DNA of 63,582 bases, the filler included, from Bacteroidales bacterium (lineage in GTDB: Bacteria; Bacteroidota; Bacteroidia; Bacteroidales; CAIWKO01), in NCBI GenBank assembly GCA_035389045.1. It is 4 parts of 4 records of this genome, joined end to end, with 100 filler letters (N's around TTAATTAATTAA, not from the genome) between each part and the next. Parts side by side here need not be neighbours in the genome. Positions count along the whole stretch, not along the records: positions 38,359 to 57,085 come from DAOORA010000077.1; 3 more parts are not named here. One strand, written 5' to 3'. Below the pieces are notes generated by a model. It searched no databases and was not told the origin of the DNA. It saw nothing but the letters and a program-made list of their open reading frames with translations. The translations under genes and the position numbers were made by a program. Of the stretch, positions 24,159-58,135 are shown one piece after another (position 1 is the stretch's first letter; each line of letters begins with the position of its first letter).

Positions 24159-24183
24159 CATACTCCATATTAATAATGCCGCA

Positions 24184-31985: not shown

Positions 31986-32195
31986 CTTTAGATACTCTAT
32001 TAATGAGGTTGCAATTTACAAAATATTCCCGAATAAGGTTGCTCCTGCTTGTAAAATCAAGACAAAAAAATCAAAGACACAATCTATCTATGCAAATAGA
32101 TTATTCCTTTTCAGACCTGTTTAAAAAAACTCAAGGTTTTACTGATCAATTTGTATATAAAAAACTATTTTTGTTAAAAAATAAAATCTTTTTTT

Positions 32196-34736: not shown

Positions 34737-34821
34737 ATTCAGAGATATTGACCGTGTAAAATATCTTGTGAGGCACCATCTATGATTTTAACTATAAATA
34801 CTGATTAATCATTCAGAAAAA

Positions 34822-34856
34822 AACGGCCTTGTAAAACAATGTTTTACAAGGCCGTT
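34822..34856. repeat. 17-bp perfect inverted repeat with a 1-nt centre between the tandem protease genes
   Basis: AACGGCCTTGTAAAACA-a-TGTTTTACAAGGCCGTT; A-tract on the left side only. Confidence 0.8.
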
Positions 34857-34960
34857 GCCTTAATAATTATCAGGTCTTCCGAAATAAAACAAAAAAACAT
34901 CTGTTTATACTTCATTTTTAAAACAAACCAGACTCTAACGAATTTTTAAAAACCACCATC

Positions 34961-37900: not shown

Positions 37901-38258
37901 ATCGGCCTTGCCGCCAGCGGCACCGGGAACATCGCTGCGTTTACAGCCACCAATACCGGTACGACATCGATTTCGGCTACAATAACTGTAACACCGACGG
38001 TAAACGGTTGTGCCGGAACGCCTTCTTCCTATACCATTACCGTTAAACCCACTCCTACAGTCACGGTTCCGGCTAATATCTCTGTCTGTAATAACGGGAC
38101 TGTCGCTGCAACCAGTTTTACCAGTACTCCCACCGGCGGCACCTTTACATGGACCAATTCCAATACCGCTATCGGCCTTGCCGCCAGCGGCACCGGGAAC
38201 ATCGCTGCGTTTACAGCCACCAATACCGGTACGACATCGATTTCGGCTACAATAACTG
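34961..38258 (+). CDS. Paralogous trypsin-like serine protease extended by 90-aa PKD-like repeats; 3' end lost in the gap
   Basis: Nearly colinear with the 32196 protein up to IYVSPIIC, then an Ig/PKD-like unit and 270-nt repeats; the stop in the ORF track comes from the linker. Confidence 0.9.
37502..38258 (+). repeat. Near-identical 270-bp coding tandem repeats (at least 2.8 units)
   Basis: Units start at 37502, 37772 and 38042; long identical stretches between units 2 and 3. Confidence 0.92.
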
Positions 38259-38358
38259 NNNNNNNNNNNNNNNNNNNNNNNNNNNNNNNNNNNNNNNNNN
38301 NNTTAATTAATTAANNNNNNNNNNNNNNNNNNNNNNNNNNNNNNNNNNNNNNNNNNNN
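38259..38358. other. Artificial assembly linker
   Basis: N run containing TTAATTAATTAA at 38303-38314. Confidence 0.97.
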
Positions 38359-38360
38359 TG

Positions 38361-38453
38361 AACAAATGCGTCAATGGCGTGGAGTGTACCGAAGAAGAAT
38401 TCCAGATGAACCGTAGAACAGAATTCAAAGTTACCAGCATCGGGAAAAAATAA
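38361..38453 (+). CDS. 3' end of an OmpA-family (PorE-like) peptidoglycan-binding protein; 5' part missing
   Basis: Hand translation NKCVNGVECTEEEFQMNRRTEFKVTSIGKK*; NRRTEF preceded by a CxxGxxC loop is the typical Bacteroidota OmpA C-terminus. Confidence 0.85.
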   Translation, partial: NKCVNGVECTEEEFQMNRRTEFKVTSIGKK

Positions 38454-39098
38454 AGGGAGCTGTCAAACAGTATATTACAAGCACTTTTTAATAATATCGC
38501 TAAGTTCAGGAAGATATTTCTTTTGATCCAATTGCTGTGTTAATTTTTCTGATATTGCTTCACAAAAAGCTATAACACCAAATTGTCAGAGATTCATTAC
38601 CTTTCAGGATATATTTGCTGGAAAATAAAAATTCATATTCATTATAACGAATTTTTTATGATAGTAAAACTACTTATTTGAATTTATTATCCATAGGCAT
38701 AAACACTACTCGAATCACTCTATAATACCAAAATTTTAAAATATTTATTAAACTAATACATATAATTAAAATGAAAAATAATACAAAACCATAAAATATA
38801 ATGCATTAGTTACTACTAAAAAAAATTTAGAAAGGTAAAAATCAACTGTCATAAAAATAGTAATGAAAAATAAGAATTCCAATAAGTTAAATGATAATTC
38901 TTATATAATTTTTTATAGTATATTATAGTATAAATCATGTTTTATTTAATTATCAAAAAAGAATAGTTAGATAAGCTAATTTATTTAACAAAAAATACTT
39001 ACTTTTATCCTTATTTTCGAGATTATTACAAGTATTTTGACGATAAAATACGTTATATACAGAAGCTATGATTATTATTATAAAACCAAATACGATCC

Positions 39099-44480: not shown

Positions 44481-44529
44481 GCCAAGCAAAATAAGGATAT
44501 CAGGCCATATCCCTTTAGTTATGATTTTT

Positions 44530-45132
44530 TCATTTTTTACCCAACCACCATTTTCGTTTTATGGGAGTTTGCCTTTCCAGAATTGTCAGTCCGTGGCTTG
44601 TTTCAATATGCTCCCTGATCTGCCATTCGGGATGCTCTTCGAGGAATTCATAAATAGCGGCCTTCATCCCTGGGCGGCCATCGAAAGGATTTACGATCCC
44701 AAAAGTTTCAGTATCGTGCATCATTATCCATTTTTTCACCCTCATATGATGATGCTCCAGTTCTGCTTTGATCTGCCCATACCAATGATCCGTATCAATA
44801 AATAACATATCCGTCATTTTTATCCTGACTTTCAGGCTATCTTTTGTTATATGTCTGAAGAACATGCCATCATCTTCCGCCGCTTGCCTTACCCGCAAAG
44901 CATTTTGGCTGACGACCACATTATAACTGTATACTTTTTCACAACCTGAGGCCAGAAAAGCAAGCGTAGAACAAGCTGAATCAATGCCCAATTCAGTAAC
45001 AATTTTACATTGGGACGCAAAATCAAAAAAAATATCCAGAAGCGGTTTTACCGAATCGTCACGAAACCCTTTTGAGCCGCGTTTGGCATAATCAAACAAT
45101 CTGAGCAGTTGTCCATTCTTAGGCTTGTCCAT
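44530..45132 (-). CDS. Class I SAM-dependent methyltransferase (Methyltransf_24-like)
   Basis: VTELGIDSACST, DMLFIDTDH.Y, IMMHDT, AIYEFL..HPEW, GLTILER. Confidence 0.8.
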   Translation of the reverse strand: MDKPKNGQLLRLFDYAKRGSKGFRDDSVKPLLDIFFDFASQCKIVTELGIDSACSTLAFLASGCEKVYSYNVVVSQNALRVRQAAEDDGMFFRHITKDSLKVRIKMTDMLFIDTDHWYGQIKAELEHHHMRVKKWIMMHDTETFGIVNPFDGRPGMKAAIYEFLEEHPEWQIREHIETSHGLTILERQTPIKRKWWLGKK

Positions 45133-45145
45133 AAAGAATAATCAT

Positions 45146-46111
45146 TTATTTTTTATGCGAAAATAAAACGGTAGCATAAGCAAGTTCGCGATTTTTTTCT
45201 TCGGTCAGTTCTTTAACATAAGATTTATCAAGGTATTTATCACCAGTATCTATAAGGTCTGCAACCTTCAATTGCAGGAATTCGTTTCGTGTTTCACCTT
45301 TCAATCCATCAGCCCAGTTTCGCAATATCCAGGTTAATGACCATATCGGTAAAGCCATTTCATTAATTTCAATCTTATCAAAATCCAAAATACCATCGAA
45401 AAGGCTCATCAATCCCTGATAGGTCATATTAAAATAATGACTTGGATATCCGTGATATGGCTGTAAGAAAGGGACACTACAGATAAGTTGCCCGCCAGGT
45501 TTCAACACACGTGATATTTCCCTGGCGCAACGAAAAGGATCTTTGACATGTTCAAGCACCGACAATGATATCACAGCATCGAATGAATTGTCAATAAATG
45601 GCAACATTTCTCCCACGCCTATTACATCAGTAGAATCATAACCTACAATTTCCAGATTGACGATATTTTCGAAATACTCGTCTCTCCTTCCCGCTCCGCA
45701 ATCAAGGATCAACCCGTTTGCATATTTACTGATTAATTTTTCAATGTTTCTGTCGTAATTATTGCTGCTGACGGCTAAGGTATCAAGGATGTTATACTTT
45801 GATCTTATTTCCGTATTAAGGAAATCGTAAAAATGCCCCGTTTTTTCGATGTAAGTCAAATCATCACAAAGCAATGGCCTTATCTTTTCCAGTTTAATTC
45901 GTTTAGGTTCAGCAATCACACTCAAAGGTAATCTAATGCACCGGCCTTCATTTTTTCCAAAAATATCGAAATGCTGACGGCCTGACAATACCGATAATCC
46001 TTCTTTTACAGCCCGTGCAACATCAGGGTTAGCATCCAGGTAAGCATCCTCGTTAAAATTTTCATCGGTTGCCTTTTCCATAAGGGGGTACGATTTCACC
46101 GAAGTATTCAT
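45146..46111 (-). CDS. Class I SAM-dependent methyltransferase with an N-terminal accessory motif
   Basis: LILDCGAG, LPFIDNSFDAVISLSVLEHV, RVLKPGG, PFLQPYHGYPSHY; N-terminal FNEDAYLDANPDV..HFDIFGKNEGR. Confidence 0.9.
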   Translation of the reverse strand: MNTSVKSYPLMEKATDENFNEDAYLDANPDVARAVKEGLSVLSGRQHFDIFGKNEGRCIRLPLSVIAEPKRIKLEKIRPLLCDDLTYIEKTGHFYDFLNTEIRSKYNILDTLAVSSNNYDRNIEKLISKYANGLILDCGAGRRDEYFENIVNLEIVGYDSTDVIGVGEMLPFIDNSFDAVISLSVLEHVKDPFRCAREISRVLKPGGQLICSVPFLQPYHGYPSHYFNMTYQGLMSLFDGILDFDKIEINEMALPIWSLTWILRNWADGLKGETRNEFLQLKVADLIDTGDKYLDKSYVKELTEEKNRELAYATVLFSHKK

Positions 46112-46141
46112 TATTTATAAATATAAATAAACCAACATAAG

Positions 46142-47251
46142 TTATTTTTTTGGCTTGGCCACGAGGTAGATGTAATCGGATGGCAACAGTTCACTCGTTA
46201 TCAGCGACTTCTCCACTTCAATAAGCACCTTCAGGGCTTTCTCCCCTTCTGAACTAGTCTCAAAATTTCCGGCTATTCCGTTCAGCAGCGGATGAAGTAT
46301 AGTACCGCCTGTTTTATGAAATTCACATATATCAAAATAATCAGCCATGATCTGTAAAATTTCTCCTGATCGGACGCTTTCATCAGGATCGGTCAGCATT
46401 AGTTTTTTAAGGTCGATCCGGTGTTCAAAAGATTTGATATCCACATTATTCTGATAACGTCTCAGTTTTTCGGGTAACAGATTTAAAAGTGCATGTACCA
46501 TTCCCAGCTGTTCGTTAGTAAACTGCAAATGGTCAGGTCCCACATATTCATACATCACCAGTATACCATCTTTTTTCAGGCCCCTGCGAATCTGGGAAAA
46601 GAAATGTTCAAGATTTTTAATATGATGTACCGTACCCCATGCGTTAATATAATCGTATTCATCTTCACCTAAAACGAACTCATTAAAATCCACCTGCCGG
46701 TATTCGATATTGGTAATATTTTCTGCCCTGCACCTGTCCTGCTGACGGGCAAGTAATCCTTCTGCAATATCCATCACTATGACCTCGCTGCAGAACTTAT
46801 TTTTTACAAGCCGGATTTCCGGCTTTGCAGATTCATCACATCCAATAAATCCGGCACGGATCAGTCGTCCATCGAAATTATTTCTTAGGACATTAACAGT
46901 ATAAGAAAGCATATCCATATTGGGATCGCCTGAAATACATTCAAACTGATATGCAGCAACCTGATCCAGTGTTTCCCAGTATATTTTAAAGCCATTGCTG
47001 ATATAATGCCGGACAGAATCATCCCAGATGAACCTGTTTTTATAGTCAGCCATATCGAAATTCCTGAATTCGTCTTCATAAGGTTCAAGTATTTCCTTTG
47101 CAGCATCAATTACAACTCCATATTCCAATGCCCAGGCCAGCAGTTTCTCCAGATCGCCTTCCCAGACTTCAGGAAAACAAGCCTGAAGATCTTTTCGGAT
47201 GGCAAATACGTTGATAAGTTCCTGAATACCTGTATATTTTTCTGCTGCCAT
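46142..47251 (-). CDS. Class I SAM-dependent methyltransferase with an N-terminal accessory motif
   Basis: VMDIA..L, YRQVDFN, YDYI..GTVHHI, GLKKDGILVMYEYVGP, DPDESVRS; N-terminal RKDLQACFPE..LLAWALEYG. Confidence 0.85.
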   Translation of the reverse strand: MAAEKYTGIQELINVFAIRKDLQACFPEVWEGDLEKLLAWALEYGVVIDAAKEILEPYEDEFRNFDMADYKNRFIWDDSVRHYISNGFKIYWETLDQVAAYQFECISGDPNMDMLSYTVNVLRNNFDGRLIRAGFIGCDESAKPEIRLVKNKFCSEVIVMDIAEGLLARQQDRCRAENITNIEYRQVDFNEFVLGEDEYDYINAWGTVHHIKNLEHFFSQIRRGLKKDGILVMYEYVGPDHLQFTNEQLGMVHALLNLLPEKLRRYQNNVDIKSFEHRIDLKKLMLTDPDESVRSGEILQIMADYFDICEFHKTGGTILHPLLNGIAGNFETSSEGEKALKVLIEVEKSLITSELLPSDYIYLVAKPKK

Positions 47252-47332
47252 TACTACTGTTCCCAAATTTTTAAATTCAGAAAAAACTGAAAAAGATTCA
47301 GATTTCTCCCTTCATTTTTAAAACAAAAATAG

Positions 47333-47340
47333 CAAATATA
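47333..47340 (-). promoter_or_regulatory. Bacteroidota -7 promoter element ahead of the three methyltransferases
   Basis: CAAATATA reads TATATTTG on the minus strand. Confidence 0.5.
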
Positions 47341-47343
47341 ATA

Positions 47344-50300
47344 TCAATTAATACGGGAGTGAATACTATCTTTTTTATCAATCATTACCGGATTCTGATC
47401 AAGGATTTTGTAAATAGTATAATCGGCCATTTCCTGAATCACAATATCGGGCTTTTCTTTTTCGATGATGGTTGGATAAAAAAGATGTGTGTAGAGAAAA
47501 TAAGTCTTACTAAAATTATTGGTTAAATAATACAGAAGAAACCCTCCGAACGAGTCGCCGTACATCAGCACAGAAGGGTTGTTGATTGTTTTATTATGGA
47601 AACAATAGGCAGGCGCCGGTGATGAAAATTCAGGATAAACCGGATAGGTAGTTTCGGTTGCAGCAGTCAGTTTATCATTAGAGGGCATATATTCACAATA
47701 CTTGACGAATTTCTCGATAGCAATCAAAACATAAAGGTCGGGTTTATAATTAGGAAATTTGATCCATGTAATATCTTTTAACGGCAAAGGAGTTCCTGTC
47801 TCCGGATAATCCCTGCTGATCTGTTCGATCATGGCAGCATATGCCACATAAGCTCCATAGTGGGTCCAATGTGAATTACTTCTGTAATACAGATCGGCAT
47901 AATTATTTTTCTTTGCTTCCATCAATGGATTATGAATATCAATAATATCGAGGTCGGTGTTTAACTTCAGATATTCGAGTAATTGTTCAAGTTTTGATTT
48001 CTGATGATAACGCCATAGACGGGGGCCAATATACTCTTCATAAACGGCATATGACATGGTTGGAAATACCAGGTAAAAGTGGATGTCCCGTTCCATAAGC
48101 CAATCGCGGCGAGCCACCAGCACATCCTTCATTTTCTTCAGCTCCTCCGGTGTAAGCGGGTTGCGGTTTTCATAATTCTCCCTGCACACTCCTCCAATAT
48201 AATACATCCAATTGTTTTCTCCGAAATGTACATTTTGATTATTCAGCACTTTCCTGAAAATCGAATATTCAATATAATTATTCAAAATAATGATGTTGTT
48301 TCTTCCCGGTATCTGGTCTTTCAGGTAATCATCAAGCCGTTTTACAAAAACTTCAGAAGAATCAGGCTTAAAAACAGGACGCGGATTGGTATAGCGCATC
48401 TCAGCAGTGAGCACCAGTCCTTCGGAACTAAATAAACTCAAAAGGAATCCATAAGAGATCAGGGAGACAAACACCAAAGTAAAAAAAACAGCCGTAAGTT
48501 GTTGCTTGCCAGTAGTGTTTCCCAGAAGAAGTAATAACAGAAAGAAAATTATTGTAATCAGTAAAAAGATATTATGTTTTAACCATAACTGTAAATTTAT
48601 CTCACCCATCTGCCCAGCTGCCGTCAATACAAAAAACGGATCATTTCCTTTGACCTGCAATACATTACCATATCTGACCATGTCGTTCAACAGCATCTTT
48701 TCAGGAGGCAAATCATCATAATTCCAGGTATTCTTAATCAGGCCTGTTTTTGTACAAATTCGGGTGTCCTTTAGTTCCTTTGTTGTTTCTGCGACATCAC
48801 AACGAAGGAACTTGTTCGCTGAAAGATCAATATTAGTTTTGAAAATGTTGAGGCCTTTGTCGGTTGAAATAATTTTAGTAGCTTCAAAAGAAGGATTGTT
48901 GTTATAATAAAATTGTACACTTTTTACAAGAGTGGATGTCTTCAATCTTACCTGATCCTGCAAATCGAGGCATAGCCAGTAATAAACAAACATCATCAAC
49001 AATGAAATAACGCATGATGCCATGAAATATCGCGTTCGCGGAGATATTATCACCACTACTGTAAACACGATAAAAAACAAAAGCAGCACAAAACTGTCAA
49101 TAAGATTTTTTGTATTGCTGTTTTTCAGGCAGGTAAATGGCAGCAAATGAACAATGACAGGCCTGCCAACCTGCTGAGCAACAGCCATAACACATTCATT
49201 ATCAACAAGGATGGTAGCATTACTGATAGAGCATACAGGCTCATTCTTATCAAATATGGAGTAAACATGATCGTTGTGAAAAAGATTTACAGACAGCAGT
49301 TGTATGGTGTCATTACTGTTCAGACTGTCAAATTTAAGAAAGAAACCTTCATCTGTGTTAAAGCGGCCTGAATAATGAAGATATTTATAAGATGGCGCGT
49401 CAAGTATCCATGAAGCAACGGAATCGGAGCCGTTAATGAGGCTTACAGCCGAAGGCTTTGAGGTCATGGCGGAAAAGTACAGGTGATCGTCGCTTTGCGA
49501 AGGTGCTTCTTTCTCCCATACAGCAGAAATAGAGTAATAGGTTAAAGGCAACAATAAAAAAGCATAGTATGCCGGTTTGAACCTAATCTTGATCAACAGC
49601 CTGTCGAATCCACTATAGAAAATCTGAAGCAACAATAAAACAAGGAAAACAAGCAAGGACAAAGCTAAGAATAGGTTTTGTTCCAAAAAGGACAGCCATT
49701 CAAGGTGCCTGATGAAATAAGCGGAAGACAGTTTAATGTATGGATCGTTGCCCGTAATATAGTATTTATCCTGTGACCTGACCAGGTCATTCAGAACAAG
49801 TATTTTCTGCGGCATCGATGCCAGATCGTATTCGGAACAGAAAAATCCGGGCTTGATCATTATTTTCAAATCCTGAAGATTAATAATACTATCGCCGGGA
49901 TCCAATCTAAGAAACCTGTCTTTTGAGTAATTTACGGGAACACTAAATGAATTTGAAATAAGGACTGATGAGAACTTTTTTTCCGGGGTAAAAAACGGAT
50001 CCTTATGATAAAAAATCTCCGCATTTTTTAGCTGCGTATCACAATTCATCGTTGCCCGTCCTATAAGGCTTTTATCGAATGTCAGGTGAGCGATGACCAT
50101 CACCAGCAGGGTAATAAGCAGGACTGCAATAAAATAACGTTTTGAAGGAGCACAGGCCAGTAGCACCAAAATTATCGCTACAAAAGCAAAAATTACCAGC
50201 CACAGGGGATTAAAACCTGAAGCACTTGTTTCCCAAACAGTTGGAGGGGGAAGATCAATGATCACCGGCTGCCCGCTTTGCTGCACAACCACGGCAATTC

Positions 50301-50709
50301 CGTCATCATTTTCAATTAGTTCTGCATTTTTAACATCACATTTCTTTTTAATACCTTCAACAAGTGATGCGACGTGATCGTTATGATACAGGTTAAATCC
50401 CAGAAAGCAAATAGTGTCACCCGCAGCAGCATCATTAATCATCAGGCTAAGCCGGCTACTGTCTGCAATTTGCCCGAGGCACTCCATATCTTTGTAACCT
50501 CCGGGGCTCACACTCCTGGTTATCAGAGTATTCCTCCCATCAAGCAAACTAAGGGATACCGGTTTTGAGGTTTTAACAGAAAAAAAGAAATAATCATTTG
50601 TTTTTTTTTCCGTTGGATAATCTTTAACCTTAAAACCATAGCACAAAAAATAGGCTAGTGGTACTGCCAGAAAAAGCAAATAAACCGGTTTAAGCCTCTT
50701 TTTTAACAT
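47344..50709 (-). CDS. Multi-TM protein: duplicated unknown module fused to an AlgJ/AlgX-like SGNH acyltransferase domain
   Basis: C-terminal YLKDQIPGR, V.FGENNWMYY, YYRSNSHWTHYGAY, MYGDSF, IEKEKPDIVIQE; N-terminal two thirds is an internal repeat with TM helices. Confidence 0.85.
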   Translation of the reverse strand: MLKKRLKPVYLLFLAVPLAYFLCYGFKVKDYPTEKKTNDYFFFSVKTSKPVSLSLLDGRNTLITRSVSPGGYKDMECLGQIADSSRLSLMINDAAAGDTICFLGFNLYHNDHVASLVEGIKKKCDVKNAELIENDDGIAVVVQQSGQPVIIDLPPPTVWETSASGFNPLWLVIFAFVAIILVLLACAPSKRYFIAVLLITLLVMVIAHLTFDKSLIGRATMNCDTQLKNAEIFYHKDPFFTPEKKFSSVLISNSFSVPVNYSKDRFLRLDPGDSIINLQDLKIMIKPGFFCSEYDLASMPQKILVLNDLVRSQDKYYITGNDPYIKLSSAYFIRHLEWLSFLEQNLFLALSLLVFLVLLLLQIFYSGFDRLLIKIRFKPAYYAFLLLPLTYYSISAVWEKEAPSQSDDHLYFSAMTSKPSAVSLINGSDSVASWILDAPSYKYLHYSGRFNTDEGFFLKFDSLNSNDTIQLLSVNLFHNDHVYSIFDKNEPVCSISNATILVDNECVMAVAQQVGRPVIVHLLPFTCLKNSNTKNLIDSFVLLLFFIVFTVVVIISPRTRYFMASCVISLLMMFVYYWLCLDLQDQVRLKTSTLVKSVQFYYNNNPSFEATKIISTDKGLNIFKTNIDLSANKFLRCDVAETTKELKDTRICTKTGLIKNTWNYDDLPPEKMLLNDMVRYGNVLQVKGNDPFFVLTAAGQMGEINLQLWLKHNIFLLITIIFFLLLLLLGNTTGKQQLTAVFFTLVFVSLISYGFLLSLFSSEGLVLTAEMRYTNPRPVFKPDSSEVFVKRLDDYLKDQIPGRNNIIILNNYIEYSIFRKVLNNQNVHFGENNWMYYIGGVCRENYENRNPLTPEELKKMKDVLVARRDWLMERDIHFYLVFPTMSYAVYEEYIGPRLWRYHQKSKLEQLLEYLKLNTDLDIIDIHNPLMEAKKNNYADLYYRSNSHWTHYGAYVAYAAMIEQISRDYPETGTPLPLKDITWIKFPNYKPDLYVLIAIEKFVKYCEYMPSNDKLTAATETTYPVYPEFSSPAPAYCFHNKTINNPSVLMYGDSFGGFLLYYLTNNFSKTYFLYTHLFYPTIIEKEKPDIVIQEMADYTIYKILDQNPVMIDKKDSIHSRIN

Positions 50710-50746
50710 CCCACGGATACTTTTTCGTTACTTGTATGTTTATACA

Positions 50747-52141
50747 TCAAAATTTGAAATATATAAATGGATTATAAGTTTCTGAAACAAGTCTCATTAC
50801 AGACATAATAAAAAGCAATATCAAAAGCGTTGCCTGCACAACAGGAATAATTCTCTTCATCCTGCCCTGCCGGAGTTTATCCGGAATTGAAACCGGGATA
50901 CTGAAAAAAATTCCCAACAACAGTATCAAGGTATGTTCCGTAGTAAAAAAGGCATTTAATCCCAATGCTCCGGGTTTTTCAGGAGAGAACATCAGCGAAA
51001 GAAAGCCGAAGGCATGACTGACGTTTTCTGTTCTGAAAAAAACCAGGCATGTAACAATGATAAACAACAAATAAACTACTGCAAAGCCATTCAGCTTTTT
51101 CAGAAATTTCAGAAGGAATAGTTCTTCCAGCGAGAGGAACAGTCCTTGCACCAGGCCCCAGATCAGAAAGTTCCATGTGGGGCCATGCCAGATACCGCAT
51201 ACGGTAAAAGTTATCATCAGGGCGATAACGATGCCGGCCTTGCCCCAATATCGCATCTGAAATGCCAGGGGGGTAAAAATATAATCCTTTATCCATGAAG
51301 CAAATGACATGTGCCAGCGGCGCCAGAACTCTGTCACCGATCTGCTGATGTATGGAAAATTGAAGTTCTCAGGAAGTTCGAATCCGAGCATCTTGCCTAT
51401 TCCAATGGCCATATCGGTATATCCGCTGAAATCAAAGAATATCTGTATGGCAAAAACCGCCATGGCAGTCCAGGCCACAAGCGGACTGATTACAATCGAG
51501 TCATTATCGACCATCAGATTAACCAGGGCTCCCAACTGATTGGCAATAATAACTTTTTTCCCCAAACCAATAATAAACCTTTTAATACCTTCGGCAAACA
51601 CCGGCAAGCTGAAAACACGGTCTTTCAGTTGTGTCCCGATTTGCTGATAACGCACCAGAGGTCCCGAAATCAGCTGGGGGAACATGGTGATATACAGAAT
51701 GATATAAAAGGGATTTTGTTCATAACGCTTGTTTTTCCTGTACACATCAATATTGTATGAAACAGCCTGAAAAGTAAAAAATGAAACCCCCAGTGAAATC
51801 ATGGTGTGTACTTCCGGAAGACCAGATATACCGGCATAAATAAGATTGTCTATAATAAATCCCAGATACTTGTTATAAATAAGTATCCCAATGAATGTCA
51901 GAATTGCAAAAACCAGGAAACCTTTTTTAAAGCGGGTACGTGCAATAAGCCAGGAGAAAAACCATGAAACAAATCCTATAAAAAGCAGCAGTATTACGAG
52001 TTTTCCTGCACCCCAAAAATAAAATACCATGCTGAAAAGTAACAGCAGTATGTTTTTCGCCCACAGTTTGGGAACCAGATAATAGGCTGCAAGAAATACC
52101 GGAAGAAAGGCAAAAATAAAAACTACCGAACTGAAAACCAT
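50747..52141 (-). CDS. MBOAT family O-acyltransferase (AlgI/DltB-like)
   Basis: MVFSS, LGVSFFTFQAVSY, FPQLISGP, DFSGYTDMAIG, FWRRWH, GIWHG (catalytic His), terminal YNPFIYFKF. Confidence 0.96.
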   Translation of the reverse strand: MVFSSVVFIFAFLPVFLAAYYLVPKLWAKNILLLLFSMVFYFWGAGKLVILLLFIGFVSWFFSWLIARTRFKKGFLVFAILTFIGILIYNKYLGFIIDNLIYAGISGLPEVHTMISLGVSFFTFQAVSYNIDVYRKNKRYEQNPFYIILYITMFPQLISGPLVRYQQIGTQLKDRVFSLPVFAEGIKRFIIGLGKKVIIANQLGALVNLMVDNDSIVISPLVAWTAMAVFAIQIFFDFSGYTDMAIGIGKMLGFELPENFNFPYISRSVTEFWRRWHMSFASWIKDYIFTPLAFQMRYWGKAGIVIALMITFTVCGIWHGPTWNFLIWGLVQGLFLSLEELFLLKFLKKLNGFAVVYLLFIIVTCLVFFRTENVSHAFGFLSLMFSPEKPGALGLNAFFTTEHTLILLLGIFFSIPVSIPDKLRQGRMKRIIPVVQATLLILLFIMSVMRLVSETYNPFIYFKF

Positions 52142-52166
52142 GAAAGGCTGTATTGCATTTGTGCAG

Positions 52167-52174
52167 CAAATGTA
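52167..52174 (-). promoter_or_regulatory. Bacteroidota -7 promoter element for the MBOAT gene
   Basis: CAAATGTA reads TACATTTG on the minus strand, 25 nt upstream of the ATG. Confidence 0.55.
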
Positions 52175-52298
52175 CTACTAAATTTAAAAACGATTTTTGA
52201 GAAAAACATATCCCGCAATTTTTTCCTGCCATACATGATAATTGCTGTAAAATATTATAATACAAGATTTTACAATGTTTTGATTTACCGTTAGTACA

Positions 52299-53795
52299 TC
52301 AAAGTTCCAGCAGTTTTTTCAGGTCGGAATCTTTAAAAACGGTTTTATTAAAAACATTGCCATAAAATGCCAGGATTCTCTCATGATCAAGGTGTTTCTT
52401 CAATACTGTATGGCTTTTTTGTATGCGTTTAGGATTAATAAGTACATTACGCATCCAGCAGACAAGAAGTTCTTTCAAATCATTGGATTTCAAAGGTACT
52501 TTTTCGGCCGGAAAAAGGTCGCCGTAAAATTCAATATCATCAAACATCTTCAGGTGAAGCTCTTTTTGTTCCTGGACAGCCAGTTCAAGGGCCTGAGCGG
52601 GATTGGGATCAAGGAGATGATACAGTCTTGTATTGTTATAAATACGTAATACGCTCAGCATGGGCTGGGCGGCATACTCCAGAGATGCCGCGAAGTCAAT
52701 GGTTTCAAGCGCTTCATCATAAGTTTCCGATGGAAATCCTGTGATAAAAAACACACGGGTGATAAAGCGTTTTGATAAGGCCTCGATGGCATGACGGGCT
52801 TTGTCAATATCCAGGTTTTTACCCGTTAATTTCTGCAGGCGAGGTGTCACCGTTTCCACGGCTAAGGCCATCTCAACCGTTCCTGCATGTTCAAACAGTT
52901 CAATCAGTTCATCATCAATCATATCGGCACGCAGGCCGTTGGGAAAATTGATCCTTATCCCCGGCAACTCCTTAATGATGACCGACAATAGTTTCTTGGC
53001 ATCCGTCATGGGGACATTAAAAACATCATCAAGAAAAACAAAATCACGAATGTCACGTTTTTCAAGATGCTCGCGCATCTCTGCCACCACATTTTCAGCA
53101 GAACGGCGGCGGATCTTTTTTCCGAACATCTGGTGACAATAAAAACAAGCGTAGGGACACCCCCGTGAACTGAATATAAATGCCGATTTAGAGGCATCCT
53201 GCAGGGCGTGGTTCTGTATGCCGCAATAATCCTGCAGGTCAATATAGTTGTAATCCGGAAATGGTAAAACATCAACAACCGGTATCAACGGCCGGGGATC
53301 ATTTACTTTTACCATCCCATTCTCAATCACCACCGTACCTTGAATATCCTGAGGTATTCCGGACGATTTCATGAGTCGTCCCACCAAATCGACAAAAGTA
53401 TCTTCCCCCTCGCCTATCACAACAATATCAGCCCATCCGGCCTTTATAATTTCGGCATACGAAGATGAGGGATAAGGTCCGCCGGCGACTAAGGGCACAT
53501 CCGGCCTTAATTTCCGTATCATTCGAGCCATTATTTCGAATGACTCTCTGGCTAAAGACAGCGCCCGCAAACCGATCAAATCAGGCTTGAACGAAGTTAT
53601 GATTGTTTCAGCTTTTTCCAATGGGTCGTGGCATACAGAAGTATGCAGTACTTTGAAATCTATCTCCGGAAATGATTTTTTTACGGCAGAAACCAGATAT
53701 AATAACCCTACCGGGTGATGACTGTAAAATACAGAGTGGGAAGTATTTCTGCTTTCCATGACATCAACATCTATCAATAGAATTCTCTGTATCAT
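52299..53795 (-). CDS. B12-binding domain radical SAM protein
   Basis: PVGLLYL, GGPYPS, VVIGEGE cobalamin domain; SRGCPYACFYC cluster motif; FLDDVF, FITGFPSET; start MIQRILL at 53795. Confidence 0.93.
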   Translation of the reverse strand: MIQRILLIDVDVMESRNTSHSVFYSHHPVGLLYLVSAVKKSFPEIDFKVLHTSVCHDPLEKAETIITSFKPDLIGLRALSLARESFEIMARMIRKLRPDVPLVAGGPYPSSSYAEIIKAGWADIVVIGEGEDTFVDLVGRLMKSSGIPQDIQGTVVIENGMVKVNDPRPLIPVVDVLPFPDYNYIDLQDYCGIQNHALQDASKSAFIFSSRGCPYACFYCHQMFGKKIRRRSAENVVAEMREHLEKRDIRDFVFLDDVFNVPMTDAKKLLSVIIKELPGIRINFPNGLRADMIDDELIELFEHAGTVEMALAVETVTPRLQKLTGKNLDIDKARHAIEALSKRFITRVFFITGFPSETYDEALETIDFAASLEYAAQPMLSVLRIYNNTRLYHLLDPNPAQALELAVQEQKELHLKMFDDIEFYGDLFPAEKVPLKSNDLKELLVCWMRNVLINPKRIQKSHTVLKKHLDHERILAFYGNVFNKTVFKDSDLKKLLEL

Positions 53796-53890
53796 TGTAT
53801 TAATTATCAAGCCTTTCGGTTATCATTATCACATAGTTTCACTTTTGCCGTGTGCTTTGCCCCCACGTAAATAGCAACGGTTATTTCCAG

Positions 53891-53917
53891 CAAATATAAT
53901 ATTTATTGTTAATTTTG
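53891..53917. promoter_or_regulatory. Back-to-back divergent -7 promoter elements
   Basis: TATATTTG on minus (53891-53898) towards the radical SAM gene; TAATTTTG on plus (53910-53917) towards the FkbH-like gene. Confidence 0.55.
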
Positions 53918-53944
53918 CCTTATTCGGATCAGAATGGAGGCGCA

Positions 53945-55672
53945 ATGAGAGATTTTTTGTACCTGTGCAAAAATCTTAAAAAGGATTTTTCGGGATTGGA
54001 AAAAGTAAAACTAGCTGTTTTGGGTGACACTTCAACCCAATTTCTTGTTCAGGCATTGCGGGGTATGGGCTATGAAAAAGGATTTGACCTGCAAATCTTC
54101 GAAGCCGATTACGACCAGATAGAACGCCAGGTATTCGACAATAATTCTGCCTTATACGAATTTAAGCCCGTAATAACCGTTGTATTTAAATCCACACATA
54201 AATTGCTGGAGAAATACAATAAATTGGATACTGTAAGTTACCAAAGGTTTGCTGATGATGAAATGGAGTCGGTTAAAAACATGAGCTCTGCATTAAACGG
54301 AAATCTTCATACGAAAGTTATTTTCTTCAACTATTCCGAGATTGATGATGCTGTTTTTGGCAGTTTTGCCAACAAAACAGCGTTCTCATTTTTGTTTCAG
54401 TTGCGAAAAATCAATTATGAGCTGATGCTGTTCGCATCCGAAAATCCGGATTTTTATTTATGCGATCTCTCGACCATTCAAAACATTGTGGGCAAGGCAA
54501 CTTTTTTTCAGCCATCGGTATACATCAATTCAGGGATGGTTTTAAGCATTGATGTGTTGCCCGAAGTATCATCAAAAACACTTGATATTATAGGCGCTTT
54601 GAAAGGCAGGTTCAAAAAATGCGTGATTCTGGACCTGGATAATACCCTCTGGGGCGGTATTATCGGAGATGACGGCATAGAAAATATCCAGCTCGGAAGC
54701 CTGGGGATCGGAAAAACATTCACAGAATTTCAGCACTGGCTGAAAAAACTGAAAAACAGGGGGATCATCCTTGCTGTATGCAGCAAAAATTCAGAACCAA
54801 CGGCTAAAGAACCTTTTGAAAAACACCCCGATATGGTCCTGCGCCTGGACGATATCGCCGTATTTGTCGCTAATTATATAAATAAGGCGGACAACATCAT
54901 ACAAATAAAGAACATCCTCAATATCGGCTATGACACGATGGTTTTTCTCGATGACAATCCCTTTGAAAGGAATCTTGTAAGACAAAGCCTGCCGGAGGTT
55001 TGTGTACCCGAATTACCGGAAGATCCCGCTGATTATCTTGAATATTTATATTCCTTGAACCTTTTTGAAACCGGCACTATTTCAGCTGAAGATGCTGAAA
55101 GAACGAAACATTATCAGCTTGAAGCCCATAGACAAAGCATTCAGCAGTTATTTATCAATGAGGATGATTACCTGCAAAGCCTGAATATGCGTTCTGTGGC
55201 GGAACCATTTAACAAATTCAATGCGCCGAGGGTGGCGCAACTGTCACAACGTTCCAACCAGTTTAACCTCAGGACTTTGCGATATACCCGTGAAGATATT
55301 GACTGGCTCATCCTTTCACCGGATCATTTCACTTTTGCCTTTACGCTGGAGGACAAATTCGGCGACTATGGCTTGATCAGTGTAGTGGTTTTACAAAAAG
55401 AAAAAACGAAAACATTATTCATTGAAAACTGGTTCATGAGCTGCCGTGTGCTGAACCGGGGAATGGAACAATTTGTCATGAACACCATTTTATCCTTTGC
55501 CAAAAAAAATGAATACACCCAGATAAAAGGGGAATATGCAGCTACCGCCAAAAACGAAATGGTGCGTGATCATTATGAAAATCTAGGATTTATCAAATCG
55601 GGCAACTCATGGATATTAAAGGTTGCTGAATATGAAAACAAAAAATGTTATATAACAAAAAATGAACGTTAA
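53945..55672 (+). CDS. FkbH-like HAD-IIIC phosphatase/glyceryl-ACP transferase
   Basis: KCVILDLDNTLWGG, LAVCSKN, FLDDNPFER, R.AQL.QRSNQFNL, DKFGDYGLI, WFMSCRVL; GGAGG before ATG 53945. Confidence 0.94.
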   Translation: MRDFLYLCKNLKKDFSGLEKVKLAVLGDTSTQFLVQALRGMGYEKGFDLQIFEADYDQIERQVFDNNSALYEFKPVITVVFKSTHKLLEKYNKLDTVSYQRFADDEMESVKNMSSALNGNLHTKVIFFNYSEIDDAVFGSFANKTAFSFLFQLRKINYELMLFASENPDFYLCDLSTIQNIVGKATFFQPSVYINSGMVLSIDVLPEVSSKTLDIIGALKGRFKKCVILDLDNTLWGGIIGDDGIENIQLGSLGIGKTFTEFQHWLKKLKNRGIILAVCSKNSEPTAKEPFEKHPDMVLRLDDIAVFVANYINKADNIIQIKNILNIGYDTMVFLDDNPFERNLVRQSLPEVCVPELPEDPADYLEYLYSLNLFETGTISAEDAERTKHYQLEAHRQSIQQLFINEDDYLQSLNMRSVAEPFNKFNAPRVAQLSQRSNQFNLRTLRYTREDIDWLILSPDHFTFAFTLEDKFGDYGLISVVVLQKEKTKTLFIENWFMSCRVLNRGMEQFVMNTILSFAKKNEYTQIKGEYAATAKNEMVRDHYENLGFIKSGNSWILKVAEYENKKCYITKNER

Positions 55673-55918
55673 ATGGTAAGACAAGATGTATTAGACCAGG
55701 TAAACAGTATCTTTATTGATGTACTTGACAAAAAAGACATCAATCTCACCGATGAAACCAGCGCCCGCGATATTGAAGAGTGGGATTCTCTGGCACATAT
55801 CCACCTGATCGTGGCTATCGAGCGAAAGTTCAACATTCGTTTTTCTTCAAAAGATATGCAAAGCTGGGAAAATGTGGGTGAAATGATAGATTGTATCTGC
55901 GAGAAATTAATGAAGTAA
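55673..55918 (+). CDS. Acyl carrier protein
   Basis: 81 aa; ARDIEEWDSLAHI phosphopantetheine Ser; starts immediately after the FkbH-like stop. Confidence 0.95.
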   Translation: MVRQDVLDQVNSIFIDVLDKKDINLTDETSARDIEEWDSLAHIHLIVAIERKFNIRFSSKDMQSWENVGEMIDCICEKLMK

Positions 55919-56100
55919 TTGATAACCAATGATTTATATTATTCCATAAAACCCTGAAGGTTGTCGAATGATACCATATGAAGATGTCCCATATCATAAA
56001 ATTCAATGTAATGCTTGTAAATAGTTATTCCTTAAAATACTCATAATCAATATTTTATAACTATTCATCTCAACAAATACTGCAAACTATAAAGCCAGAC

Positions 56101-57012
56101 ATGCCGCATACAATCGAATATATTATTGACCGCATCAGTGAACTCAACGCTTTACACAGCAAAAAGCTAAAAAAAAATATTGACAACTGTGATCTTGAAT
56201 ATTTTGAGCGCGCAGAGGTTTTTCTAAAAAAATATGAATCGATGCTGCTGGCCGAAAATAAAACTCTTGATTTTGCCATTGATTGTTACCTGCGGATGCT
56301 GGCCGATGTCAATTACGAAACGGTACAATTTCTTCGTAACGGATCGTATTCCAACAGTTCCTTTACCGGAGTTAACGAAAGGATCTACCGCAATCCTGAT
56401 ATAATGACGTATTATATGCATGGTTTGCTCCTGTCGCAGTTTTTATGGATACAGCATTATAAAGTCTTTCAGTTTTTTATTGAAATCATTACAGACCAAA
56501 GAAGACAGGTAAAAAATTATCTCGAAGTAGGCGGAGGCCATGGATTATTTATTTCAGAGGCCATCAGAGTCATCGGAAAACATGCCTGTTACGATATGGT
56601 TGACATCAGTAAAAGTTCTATCGAATTAGCAAAATGCATGACCGGCAACAATGATGTTTTATACCATCAAACCGATATTCGCGATTACAATTCTCCTTCG
56701 CAATATGATTTCATTACCATGGGTGAAGTTATGGAACATGTGGAAGATCCCGCCGGATTGCTTAGAAAAACATTCAGCTTATTAAACGACGGCGGCAGCT
56801 TATTTATCACGACACCTACCAACGCACCGGCTATTGATCATATTTATCTTTTTAATAATGCCGGTGAGATCAGGAAAATAATCAGTGAAGCAGGATTTGA
56901 AATAAAAGACGAATTATGTGTATATTCAGAAGATATGCCTGCAGCAAAGGCCGAAAAAAATAAAGTATCGATGATGTATGCTGGTGTGCTTAAAAAAACA
57001 GGGAAAAGTTAG
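56101..57012 (+). CDS. Class I SAM-dependent methyltransferase
   Basis: YLEVGGGHG, VDIS, YDFITMGEVMEHVEDP, LNDGGSLFITTP. Confidence 0.92.
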   Translation: MPHTIEYIIDRISELNALHSKKLKKNIDNCDLEYFERAEVFLKKYESMLLAENKTLDFAIDCYLRMLADVNYETVQFLRNGSYSNSSFTGVNERIYRNPDIMTYYMHGLLLSQFLWIQHYKVFQFFIEIITDQRRQVKNYLEVGGGHGLFISEAIRVIGKHACYDMVDISKSSIELAKCMTGNNDVLYHQTDIRDYNSPSQYDFITMGEVMEHVEDPAGLLRKTFSLLNDGGSLFITTPTNAPAIDHIYLFNNAGEIRKIISEAGFEIKDELCVYSEDMPAAKAEKNKVSMMYAGVLKKTGKS

Positions 57013-57024
57013 GGAGGGGTCGAT

Positions 57025-57085
57025 AGTCAGGAGTCAGGAGTCAGGAGGTCCCGATAGCTATCGGGAGGGAGTTGGGAGTCGGGAG
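57025..57085 (+). repeat. Degenerate heptamer repeats (AGTCAGG/AGTCGGG) interrupted by an 18-bp palindrome
   Basis: AGTCAGG x3, then TCCCGATAGCTATCGGGA (57049-57066), then GGGAGTT-GGGAGTC-GGGAG up to the gap. Confidence 0.8.
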
Positions 57086-57185
57086 NNNNNNNNNNNNNNN
57101 NNNNNNNNNNNNNNNNNNNNNNNNNNNNNTTAATTAATTAANNNNNNNNNNNNNNNNNNNNNNNNNNNNNNNNNNNNNNNNNNNN
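57086..57185. other. Artificial assembly linker
   Basis: N run containing TTAATTAATTAA at 57130-57141. Confidence 0.97.
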
Positions 57186-57315
57186 ATTTATGATGGATTT
57201 TTTAGCGAAACGAGGCAGATTTTGCAGACATAGTTTATCCCATGTCGAAAAATCTAACGAAGTTGCAGCAAAAAAGACGCATAAAGATATGAAAGGAAAA
57301 AATCAAAACAATTTC
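57186..57315 (-). mobile_element. MITE family A, inverted copy truncated by the gap
   Basis: Reverse complement matches 23954 to about 24083 with few differences. Confidence 0.88.
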
Positions 57316-58135
57316 TTAATCAATGGCTTGCCAGTTTATTCACATGCCAGGGATGATAATGATGCCTTACGGTTTATCATAAGTAATCTCATTAGTCAGG
57401 GTTTATACCGCAAAGTTGATATTGAGCGTGCATTTGGTGTAAGTGAAGACAGTTTCAGTCGTGCTTATAATAAATACTTAAAAAAGGGGAAGCTGGTTTT
57501 TTTGGACCATATGCCCGACATGGGAAGGCACATAAGATAACTGGCGCCAGACGTGAACGTATACAGTCGAAACTTGATAAAGGCCAGAACGCATATAGTA
57601 TTTCCCGCTTGTACAATTAGCCATGGAGCAACCCCTGGATGACTTACCAGGAATAACGAATAAACAAATAGAGCACAAAGAAAAGATCGACTCTCTGAAA
57701 AATCAGGAAACAGAACTTTTAGACCGACGTTCTAAAATCAAGCCTCGCATTAAAGTATATCTGATGCCTCAGCAAGAGCGATATAATAAACTGAAAACTG
57801 AAAGCAAACTATTAATGAATGTGAAAAAGATGATTTGTTATAAGGCTGAATCTTCTGTCGCACAATGGATCGTCCCATATCTGGCAAAAGGAGAAGATGA
57901 AAAGAGAATGGTTGTCAAACAGATCATTAAATCCAGAGTAGACCTAAAACCTGATCATATAGACCAAACATTAATAATAACGCTTCATTCATTGTCTGCT
58001 GCCAGATACAATTATGCTGCCATGGAATTATCTAAACTACTCAACCAGACTGATACTAATTTTACAGGTACTGATTTGAAAATGATTTTTGAAATTACCG
58101 CTAATTTAAATTGCGTGGAGTAAGGAGTTCTGAAT
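57316..58135 (+). pseudogene. Internally deleted, frameshifted transposase remnant
   Basis: Fragment 1 NGLPVYSH..RFIISNL..DIERAFGVS (HTH-like); fragment 2 KMICYKAES..DLKPD..LIITLHSL..LNQTDTNFTGTDLKMIFEI resembles, from recall, the C-terminus of a large putative-transposase family; no catalytic core between them. Confidence 0.65.

Follow-up and report, generated by a model that had tools for sequence, protein, structure and literature searches.

The DNA analysed here (the window, 63,582 nucleotides) comes from a metagenome-assembled genome (MAG) of a Bacteroidales bacterium (GCA_035389045.1) and joins four of its contigs: C75 at positions 1–19099, C76 at 19200–38258, C77 at 38359–57085 and C114 from 57186 to the end. 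The spacers between them (19100–19199, 38259–38358 and 57086–57185, each of 44 N, 12 letters and 44 N) separate genes that are not genomic neighbours. The subject of this work is a cluster of nine genes on C77, a candidate acyl-export relay, the last gene of which ends 73 bp short of the contig end. The open reading frames (ORFs) lie at 44530–45132, 45146–46111, 46142–47266, 47344–50709, 50747–52141 and 52299–53810 on the minus strand and at 53906–55672, 55673–55918 and 56101–57012 on the plus strand. They encode, in this order, three candidate methyltransferases (MT1–MT3), a giant fusion protein, a membrane-bound O-acyltransferase (MBOAT), a cobalamin-dependent radical S-adenosylmethionine (SAM) enzyme, an FkbH-type loader, an acyl carrier protein (ACP) and a fourth methyltransferase (MT4). 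The ORF calls agree with the nine genes listed in a first-pass annotation made from the sequence, and the six motifs named there (DLDNT, MSCR, WDSL, GIWHG, CPYACFYC as the CxxxCxxC motif, and GDSF) are all present. The FkbH/HAD-IIIC, PP-binding, MBOAT, ALGX, B12-binding and Radical_SAM profiles all score over their cut-offs. The order of the cluster genes is conserved at 55–75% protein identity among related genomes, which is beyond chance.

The FkbH-type loader (53906–55672, plus strand) has 588 residues as called and consists of an FkbH_N domain, a HAD-IIIC phosphatase domain and a C-terminal acyl-transfer domain. Its start is probably the ATG at 53945, since the homologues align from residue 13–14. 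It scores 288.3 bits against TIGR01686 (cut-off 146.65), over positions 3–320 of the 323 of the profile, and 235 bits against FkbH_N. The DLDNT motif occupies residues 243–247 (54632–54646) and the MSCR motif residues 511–514 (55436–55447). The residues of the HAD motifs, D243, D245, T247, S293-K294-N295, K327 and D349-D350, are invariant in all eight aligned sequences, and so are S512-C513-R514, of which C513 is presumably the counterpart of the catalytic Cys of OzmB-type enzymes. Among proteins of known structure its nearest match is the uncharacterized BF1531 from Bacteroides fragilis (PDB code 3slr, E 3.9e-142, residues 17–393). For the FkbH family, the formation of glyceryl-S-ACP from 1,3-bisphosphoglycerate (1,3-BPG) is established (PMC7489565), and lactoyl/pyruvoyl-ACP is described as formed from 1,3-BPG (PMC6162330).

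The ACP is a small protein of 81 residues (55673–55918, plus strand), the start codon of which abuts the FkbH stop codon. It scores 30.5 bits against PP-binding (cut-off 20.8), and its WDSL motif, with Ser39, comprises residues 37–40 (55781–55792). It shares 51–79% identity with FkbH-adjacent ACPs across Bacteroidota and in one Treponema MAG. The WDSL motif is common to the FkbH-linked ACP, to two further ACPs of the same genome (ACP2 on contig C70 and that of a module on contig C34, both described below) and to an alphaproteobacterial ACP. No AMP-binding domain was found by Pfam in the nine cluster proteins, whereas the paralogous module on C70 has one.

Two pathways in which FkbH-type enzymes take part were considered for the locus and rejected. 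A methoxymalonyl-ACP pathway (FkbG–K) does not fit, as no dehydrogenase domain is present among the nine proteins and the methyltransferases match Methyltransf_11 or Methyltransf_23, FkbG being, as we take it, of a different methyltransferase family. A polyketide synthase (PKS) or tetronate cluster does not fit either, as neither a ketosynthase nor a FabH-like gene is present at the cluster locus.

The MBOAT (464 residues, 50747–52141, minus strand) scores 86.5 bits against PF03062 (cut-off 27) and contains the motifs GIWHG (residues 316–320 with His319, 51182–51196) and WRRWH (His277, 51311–51325). Its only NCBIfam match is DltB, at 157 bits; the equivalog cut-off of 375 bits indicates that it is DltB-like and not DltB itself. 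Its profile matches the DltB structures 8jem and 6bug (E 5.5e-43) with both histidine motifs aligned, and H277 and H319 are invariant in 12/12 aligned sequences. The predicted complex of the MBOAT with the ACP scored 0.44, 0.47 and 0.43 in three runs as opposed to 0.00 in three controls, with a contact agreement between runs of at least 96% and a partner pLDDT of at least 82. When the method was calibrated, 116 of 157 solved complexes and two of 215 mismatched pairs passed the mark. Of the 157 solved complexes only 18 scored 0.60 or less, as did both mismatched pairs that passed; in this range a pass is wrong in most cases unless the docking was plausible from the outset. The model thus points weakly to docking of the ACP on the MBOAT.

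The giant fusion protein (1121 residues, 47344–50709, minus strand) is made of two membrane modules, residues 1–372 and 373–765, and an SGNH-type domain, residues ~780–1121. The two membrane modules are tandem copies with 29% identity. One copy, predicted from a 14-row alignment with a pLDDT of 86.6 and a pTM of 0.82, is modelled as a transmembrane (TM) helix, a beta-sandwich, a TM hairpin, a second beta-sandwich and a long TM helix. A hydropathy scan gives nine TM segments, of which that at residues 737–763 lies ahead of the C-terminal domain. With the positively charged loops placed inside, the N-terminus would be cytoplasmic, and the four beta-sandwiches and the C-terminal domain would be periplasmic. 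Foldseek returned generic C2-like and beta-sandwich matches to the repeat model (TM-scores of 0.1–0.2), and the only domain-level match was a CBM60 carbohydrate-binding module (TM-score of 0.64 by target, 119 columns), which is a hint of such a likeness and no more. An ESM Atlas search with the N-terminal repeat gave unnamed clusters only (0.87–0.90) and no lead. An alignment search of 300 further Bacteroidota genomes, drawn from all over the phylum, did not find the repeat module; two marginal matches (E ~3e-4) contain internal stop codons and were taken as spurious.

The C-terminal domain of the fusion scores 41.5 bits against ALGX (cut-off 26.5, residues 827–971), and its profile matches PatB1 from Bacillus cereus (PDB code 5v8d, E 3.7e-11) and AlgJ (4o8v, E 4.4e-3). 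The GDSF motif, with Ser1053, lies at residues 1051–1054 (47548–47559) and the NSHW motif, with Asn945 and His947, at 47866–47877, both on the minus strand; the Ser of GDSF and the His-Trp pair are invariant. That the large protein is a fusion is supported by one relative in which the second copy is split, giving a 731-residue repeat protein and a 579-residue AlgX-like protein.

The radical SAM enzyme is a class B enzyme of 503 residues (52299–53810, minus strand). It scores 61.5 bits against B12-binding (cut-off 32.1) and 76.5 bits against Radical_SAM (cut-off 29.5), and it carries CPYACFYC at residues 218–225 (53136–53159), where C218, C222 and C225 are invariant in 9/9 sequences. It matches no NCBIfam equivalog, as all 29 matches remain below their cut-offs (the best is ApyD with 109 bits vs 750). 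Its matches to characterised enzymes are weak: AprD4, a diol-dehydratase, with 2.3e-13, TokK with 9.6e-8 and CysS with 2.8e-4. In the relatives one or two copies of this gene lie between FkbH and the MBOAT. The genome of the window also contains at least eight clustered B12-radical-SAM paralogues on contig C27, at ~6.5–26 kb (22–30% identity by tblastn).

The FkbH-ACP-MBOAT combination is not restricted to this organism. With one protein query FkbH was detected in 14 of 41 genomes, including that of the window, and in 11 of 22 further members of its family. Among species-representative genomes a pattern scan yielded at least 594 FkbH relatives, and the locus counts given here refer to the best 80 of them. 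These 80 loci belong mostly to Bacteroidota (Flavobacterium, Chryseobacterium, Pedobacter, Mucilaginibacter, Prevotella and Bacteroidaceae) and also include Treponema, Bacillota and Ignavibacteria. An ACP is found in 76/80 and an MBOAT in 66/80. The pairs of FkbH and MBOAT are within 3 kb of each other in 63 of 66 cases and co-directional in 63 of 66, with a median gap of 672 bp. Tailoring genes differ from locus to locus: MaoC occurs in 22, SDR in 25, VOC in 19, MT4 in 14 and ketoacyl-ACP synthase III (KASIII) in 7 of the 80 loci. The radical SAM enzyme and the giant fusion occur twice each, both times in the window's own family, to which the two are restricted save for the radical SAM loci outside the phylum described below. 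FkbH-ACP-MBOAT is therefore a widespread cassette with variable tailoring genes.

In seven of nine Pfam-annotated loci the order is FkbH, ACP, zero to four tailoring genes and then the MBOAT; the position of the tailoring genes between ACP and MBOAT fits tailoring on the carrier before export. The MBOAT gene precedes one for a protein of ~300–360 residues without a Pfam match, which has a single N-terminal TM anchor in the two cases checked (L054 and L069). The profile of these ~300-residue partners gives weak SGNH matches (E ~0.01), and their hhalign comparison with the C-terminal domain of the giant fusion was not significant (probability 4%), so that homology is not claimed. Neighbours in some annotated FkbH loci include genes for a Wzx-type flippase, glycosyltransferases (GT) and a pyruvyl-transferase. 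In a Treponema MAG (L059, 12083–16602) genes for MaoC, an aldo-keto reductase and a split transketolase are located between FkbH-ACP and the MBOAT, and these hint at a carbon-chain extension of the carrier-bound unit.

An alignment scan with the radical SAM enzyme gave 115 relatives, of which 78 loci were kept; 18 are close (at least 53% identity, all from Bacteroidales/Bacteroidota MAGs), several of them being from the same genomes as a set of ten relative loci and hence not independent of it. Among these 18 close loci the MBOAT is present in 15, FkbH in 11, the giant fusion in 12, and FkbH or the MBOAT in 17; the remaining one is a contig of 5.8 kb. The radical SAM and methyltransferase homologues thus do accompany FkbH-ACP-MBOAT in other genomes, which was the co-occurrence check proposed with the first-pass annotation, and they do so beyond the phylum as well. 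In an alphaproteobacterial MAG (L131) one strand encodes a B12-radical SAM enzyme (46% identity), an ACP, an FkbH (281 bits against TIGR01686), an MBOAT, a TM-anchored protein of 385 residues, a methyltransferase 30% identical to MT4 and an ABC transporter; genes for NeuB and a cytidylyltransferase lie upstream of this set. This is an independent recurrence of the radical SAM-ACP-FkbH-MBOAT-methyltransferase set. A Thermodesulfobacteriota MAG contains a radical SAM homologue (35%) with an MBOAT and an AlgX-like protein, and in a Magnetococcales MAG (L134) the homologue (44%) adjoins an AT3-SGNH acyltransferase; the locus there is of the O-antigen type, and no ACP was seen in it. The radical SAM clade is tied to membrane O-acyltransferases of glycan loci.

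Two of the loci collected contain other arrangements. In the genome of L120 (L015, 10984–14878) genes for an MjaI-type restriction enzyme, a DNA methylase/nuclease and Schlafen/AlbA_2 are inserted between the FkbH and radical SAM genes. A Fibrobacteraceae MAG (L130, 6894–9506) encodes an 870-residue protein with a B12-radical SAM core, the ~380-residue N-terminal extension of which is a 26% tblastn match to FkbH; its neighbours are a second B12-radical SAM enzyme and a carbamoyltransferase.

Three of the four methyltransferases listed in the first-pass annotation exceed their Pfam cut-offs, and MT1 does not. MT2 (321 residues, 45146–46111, minus strand) is a SAM methyltransferase with 57.2 bits against Methyltransf_11 (cut-off 21.2) and ~110 N-terminal residues to which no domain is assigned; its orthologues, 58–72% identical, adjoin MT1 in the relatives. 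MT3 (374 residues, 46142–47266, minus strand; Methyltransf_11, 41.8 bits) is an accessory SAM methyltransferase with no match in the ten relative loci or in the best 80 FkbH loci, and L120 has one orthologue (58%) in the corresponding place, behind the giant fusion. MT4 (303 residues, 56101–57012, plus strand; Methyltransf_23, 71.7 bits), also a SAM methyltransferase, is found in 14/80 FkbH loci outside the family of the window, where the radical SAM enzyme is absent. MT1 (200 residues, 44530–45132, minus strand) is soluble and has sub-threshold Pfam matches only, with 18 bits on both Methyltransf_24 and RMNT_CmcI. Its orthologues match Methyltransf_24 in 4/4 cases (best E 7e-5) and RMNT_CmcI in 3/4, and MT1 probably has a class-I methyltransferase fold similar to CmcI and rhamnosyl-O-methyltransferases. 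Its profile had no match in the PDB, and its fold model is poor (pLDDT 52). L011, L012 and L016 also have MT1 conserved on the downstream side of the fusion gene.

The cluster is divided into two divergent gene sets by a control region at 53811–53944, which separates the radical SAM operon from the FkbH operon and includes the 95-bp spacer between the called genes. It contains TAATTTTG at 53910–53917 on the plus strand and TATATTTG at 53891–53898 on the minus strand, which we take to be putative matches of the Bacteroidota -7 box. A sigma-70 promoter scan gave 52 sites vs 40.1 +/- 7.2 in shuffles, that is, no enrichment, and a terminator scan was not above shuffles.

C77 ends in a repeat (57013–57085) that joins it to C70. 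The final 55 nt of C77 and those of C70 are exact reverse complements of each other, and the palindromic core of the repeat is present in only 6/135 contigs; five copies of the palindrome lie at the C70 end (L025, 3960–4599) and one at the C77 end. Around the copies extends an intergenic array of ~700 bp with short runs of the CTCCCGA/CTCCCAA/CTCTCAA type. The assembly was interrupted by this palindrome array, which lies between the genes for MT4 and the VOC protein. The cluster of C77 appears to continue into C70, the two forming one larger surface-polysaccharide locus. In the contiguous assemblies of relatives the order is fatty-acyl-AMP ligase (FAAL), ACP2, VOC(-), MT4(-), ACP(-), FkbH(-), then the radical SAM enzyme, MBOAT, fusion, MT2 and MT1, and one relative with the joined C70–C77 order is a single-contig genome. 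The cluster had been described at first pass as a stand-alone island without a glycosyltransferase; this is an artefact of the contig end, which accounts for none being visible, and the locus goes on to GT2 genes, an ABC-2 exporter and FdtA/DegT.

The genes of C70 are, in order, those for an ABC-2 permease and ATPase, a double GT2, a radical SAM enzyme of the non-B12 type and a polytopic 577-residue protein; then a methyltransferase, a type IX secretion cargo protein, a GT2, DegT and FdtA; and then MBOAT2, a 194-residue methyltransferase, a 1150-residue paralogue of the giant fusion (BIG2), a FAAL-like enzyme and ACP2. The opposite strand encodes a 247-residue methyltransferase and then the VOC protein, which best matches methylmalonyl-CoA epimerase with 49.5 bits, under the cut-off. 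The FdtA and DegT genes would serve the synthesis of a 3-amino-3,6-dideoxyhexose. The MBOAT/giant-fusion pairs are the only acyltransferases among the ORFs scanned in the joined locus, with no LbH or GNAT enzyme among them.

MBOAT2, BIG2, the FAAL-like ligase and ACP2 of C70 make up a module paralogous to that of C77, in which the ligase occupies FkbH's place; the replacement of the adenylating enzyme by FkbH proposed in the first-pass annotation thus has its counterpart in the same genome. A third carrier-dependent MBOAT module is located on contig C34 (L022, 3946–10699). Besides an MBOAT and two GDSL proteins, one of them bearing LysM repeats, it encodes an acetate-CoA-ligase-like enzyme (658 bits vs a cut-off of 729) and an ACP 42–45% identical to the FkbH-linked ACP; its LysM domains suggest peptidoglycan as the acceptor.

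Type IX secretion system (T9SS) cargo genes occur by or in the glycan locus: at 39099–44480 (PKD/CHU_C, with a further masked run of 100 N at 40761–40860 inside the PKD-repeat gene), at L016 129–881 in a relative, where the PKD/CHU_C gene adjoins MT1, and at L021 8333–10000 on C70 (Por_Secre_tail). The modified glycan may possibly be tied to the anchoring of T9SS cargo. At the other side of the last spacer, C114 starts with an insertion-sequence remnant (57186–58123); a 40-nt probe at 57200 is present in 20 contigs of the genome, a 166-residue ORF aligns only with the C-terminal end of Transposase_29, and genes for PBP2, RodA and CorA are next.

The cluster stretch is present in sequencing runs labelled activated sludge, wastewater or anaerobic digester. 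Contigs from two metatranscriptome libraries, in which DNA carry-over is possible, match 11 and 8 of 30 bins at 99% or better; the matches cover MT1, MT2, MT3, the fusion, the MBOAT, FkbH, the ACP and MT4, and no contig extends beyond the C77 end. A strain with 95–99% identity, from another run, keeps the MBOAT, the radical SAM enzyme, FkbH, the ACP and MT4 on overlapping contigs.

The architecture of the cluster, with a loader, an ACP, an MBOAT and an extracytoplasmic SGNH-type transferase, corresponds to the Dlt/Alg-like scheme put forward at first pass. With the Dlt system it shares a small dedicated carrier bearing the DSL serine, a DltB-like MBOAT in which both histidine motifs recur, and a membrane-anchored extracytoplasmic SGNH-type partner. 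However, an FkbH/HAD-IIIC loader is present instead of the adenylating DltA, the payload is presumably a hydroxy acid rather than D-alanine, the partner is AlgJ/PatB1-like and not DltD-like, and the host is Gram-negative. The AlgI/AlgJ/AlgX and PatA1/PatB1 systems similarly combine an MBOAT with an AlgX/AlgJ-family transferase in which the active-site Ser and His are conserved. Unlike them, the cluster has a dedicated ACP and loader, the donor in the Alg system being unidentified (PMC4432689), and its transferase has Asn for the triad Asp and is fused to two modules, each with four TM segments and a double beta-sandwich.

The FkbH/OzmB and tetronate loaders resemble the cluster enzyme in the FkbH domain, which is over cut-off, in the HAD-IIIC motifs and in the stand-alone ACP, and glyceryl-S-ACP is the expected product (PMC7489565). 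In contrast to these polyketide loaders, the cluster is without PKS or non-ribosomal peptide synthetase genes, FkbK/FkbI-type dehydrogenases and a FabH-like tetronate enzyme, and the acyl group would be handed to a membrane acyltransferase and not to an assembly line. The nonulosonic acids of Tannerella forsythia and Campylobacter jejuni offer a parallel on the side of the product, as a glycerate-derived and sometimes O-methylated acyl group is described on their surface glycans (PMC5378307, PMC3068675); they differ in that these are amides, presumably added in the cytoplasm, and an MBOAT relay is not described there. The radical SAM enzyme has an N-terminal B12-binding domain and a CxxxCxxC core like the B12 methylases of the TokK/CysS/TsrM type, but it reaches no characterised equivalog, and the genes of its clade neighbour those of membrane O-acyltransferases in glycan loci.

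In the full-text literature searched, which leaves most subscription journals outside its coverage, no description was found of an FkbH-loaded MBOAT or polysaccharide acylation relay; FkbH appears there in polyketide and non-ribosomal-peptide contexts, with the mention of a Campylobacter gene only in addition. The parts and the logic of the relay are known, while an FkbH loader in such a relay, the coupling to a radical SAM enzyme and the scaffold-fused transferase lacking the Asp were not found described.

The reading that we favour, by a small measure, is that the cluster encodes a Dlt/Pat-like relay in which FkbH stands in place of the adenylating loader and a tailored glycerate-derived unit is exported onto a glycan. 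The chances are likewise somewhat on the side of its being one of two paralogous carrier-dependent MBOAT relays within the larger surface-polysaccharide locus. In the proposed mechanism FkbH would take a C3 unit from 1,3-BPG, dephosphorylate it and load it as glyceryl-S-ACP, provided that the subfamily of the cluster behaves as its characterised relatives do. The unit would then be tailored in the cytoplasm, while on the carrier, by MT4 and the VOC protein, and it would be C-methylated by the B12 radical SAM enzyme. At the cytoplasmic face the acyl group would move from the ACP to the DltB-like MBOAT, which would convey it across the inner membrane, a hand-over suggested by homology, gene linkage and the weak docking signal. 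The periplasmic AlgJ/PatB1-like domain would accept the acyl group on its serine and esterify the exported glycan, and the four beta-sandwich domains of the fusion may hold the polymer. MT1, MT2 and MT3 may methylate the acyl unit or sugars. The substrate, each of the tailoring steps, the hand-over and the acceptor are all deduced. Acyl groups of the expected kind are described on bacterial polymers: T. forsythia has a glyceroyl group on a surface glycan in the form of Pse5Am7Gra, the genetic basis of which is called unknown (PMC5378307), C. jejuni has di-O-methylglyceroyl-Pse on a surface glycan (PMC3068675), and gellan carries L-glycerate (PMC4432689). Moreover, cj1302, an FkbH-domain gene, is located in the flagellar glycosylation locus of C. 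jejuni (PMC7099621).

Several observations weigh against this relay. An MBOAT is absent from 14/80 FkbH loci, seven of which have at least 4.5 kb on both sides, and in two such loci (L037 and L062) FkbH-ACP occurs with KASIII, GNAT-like or hexapeptide acyltransferases. In L126 the ACP, MT4, the radical SAM enzyme, the MBOAT and the giant fusion are kept and FkbH is absent. The predicted docking of the ACP on the MBOAT may mirror the likeness to DltB-DltC, as that complex has already been solved, and homology does not fix the donor of the MBOAT, since the cytoplasmic donor of the AlgI type is itself unidentified (PMC4432689). The radical SAM enzyme could act on a glycan or a sugar nucleotide, given its AT3-SGNH neighbour and the lack of an ACP in L134, and the sub-threshold matches of MT1 include a sugar O-methyltransferase family. 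The transferase domain departs from the canonical Asp-His-Ser triad, the Asp being replaced by Asn (N-x-H-W) in all four proteins of the FkbH-linked relay type, to which the cluster protein belongs; the two proteins of the paralogous BIG2 type have A/G-T-H-W at this position, where PatB1 has D-H-H-W and AlgJ has D-T-H-W.

An unlikely, though substantial, alternative separates the two halves of the cluster: FkbH, the ACP and MT4, with or without the radical SAM enzyme, would make a modified C3 acyl donor for the cytoplasmic N-acylation of the FdtA/DegT amino sugar, in parallel with the N-glyceroyl and di-O-methylglyceroyl nonulosonic acids, and the MBOAT and the fusion would form an AlgI/AlgJ- or PatA/PatB-type O-acetylation pair with another donor. 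FdtA and DegT are present in the joined locus and a dedicated N-acyltransferase for the amino sugar was not seen there, N-glyceroyl and di-O-methylglyceroyl groups occur on surface sugars (PMC5378307, PMC3068675), and cj1302 has its place in a glycosylation locus (PMC7099621). The MBOAT-less FkbH-ACP loci with their cytoplasmic acyltransferases are in keeping with such a division, as is PatB1, the closest solved relative of the transferase domain, which judging by its entry title is an O-acetyltransferase. Yet FkbH, ACP and MBOAT are operonic in 63/80 loci of several phyla, each MBOAT/giant-fusion pair in the genome of the window has its own ACP and loader, and among the ORFs scanned in the joined locus a soluble acyltransferase able to take an acyl group from an ACP was not found, the 577-residue protein being polytopic. 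The weak ACP-MBOAT docking signal also speaks for a connection of the two halves.

Two further alternatives keep the relay and change one of its ends. It is improbable, on our estimate, that the acceptor is other than the polysaccharide of the locus, namely peptidoglycan, lipid or lipid A, or the glycan anchor of T9SS cargo. The cargo genes flanking the locus at 39099–44480, beside MT1 in L016 and within C70 would agree with this, and so would the action of Dlt and Pat on teichoic acids and wall polymers (PMC11035591; PDB titles). Against it, in this genome as in those relatives that were examined, the cassette is situated among genes for GT2, an ABC-2 exporter, a Wzx-type flippase, NeuB or sugar-nucleotide synthesis, and the four beta-sandwich domains of the fusion have a carbohydrate-binding module as their best, if weak, domain-level fold match. 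Slightly more improbable still is a different cargo: the FkbH subfamily of the BF1531 type, with its additional N-terminal domain, would load something else than glycerate, in which case the relay would be right and the glyceroyl wrong. This subfamily is without a characterised member, its only solved structure is annotated as 'uncharacterized protein BF1531', and the literature found on glyceryl- and lactoyl-ACP concerns secondary metabolites throughout. But TIGR01686 is matched well over its cut-off, with the HAD motifs and the Ser-Cys-Arg invariant, and the MaoC (22/80) and SDR (25/80) genes of other loci suit the conversion of a beta-hydroxy C3 unit to lactoyl, as proposed for starters made from 1,3-BPG (PMC6162330).

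Beyond the single locus, a bolder proposal, which we consider doubtful, is that the FkbH-ACP-MBOAT cassettes constitute a large unrecognised modular class in gut Bacteroides, Prevotella, Flavobacteriia and Treponema. In these an acyl group would be built on a carrier and exported as non-acetyl glycan esters (glyceroyl, lactoyl, and O- or C-methylated C3–C4 hydroxy-acyl groups). In the version found here, the unit would be alkylated on its carrier by one or two cobalamin radical SAM enzymes prior to export, and the ester would be placed by a transferase that lacks the triad Asp and is fused to a polymer-holding membrane scaffold.

The O-acylation of surface polymers alters their charge, immune recognition, phage adsorption and resistance to enzymes, and the known relays carry D-alanine in the case of Dlt and acetate in those of Alg, Pat and Wss, the cytoplasmic donor of the acetate relays being still unidentified (PMC4432689). 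A relay the donor of which is spelled out in the operon, as FkbH, a dedicated ACP and interchangeable tailoring genes, would be a tractable model for how bacterial MBOATs take up and transfer acyl groups. It also predicts new ester substituents, which would be lost in the mild-base work-up of polysaccharides. Since the core cassette is common (at least 594 relatives, including B. fragilis BF1531), a function found here would annotate many genomes. The link to the radical SAM enzyme may point to a new substrate class for cobalamin radical SAM enzymes and, if true, would mean that radical C-methylation serves the decoration of the cell envelope.

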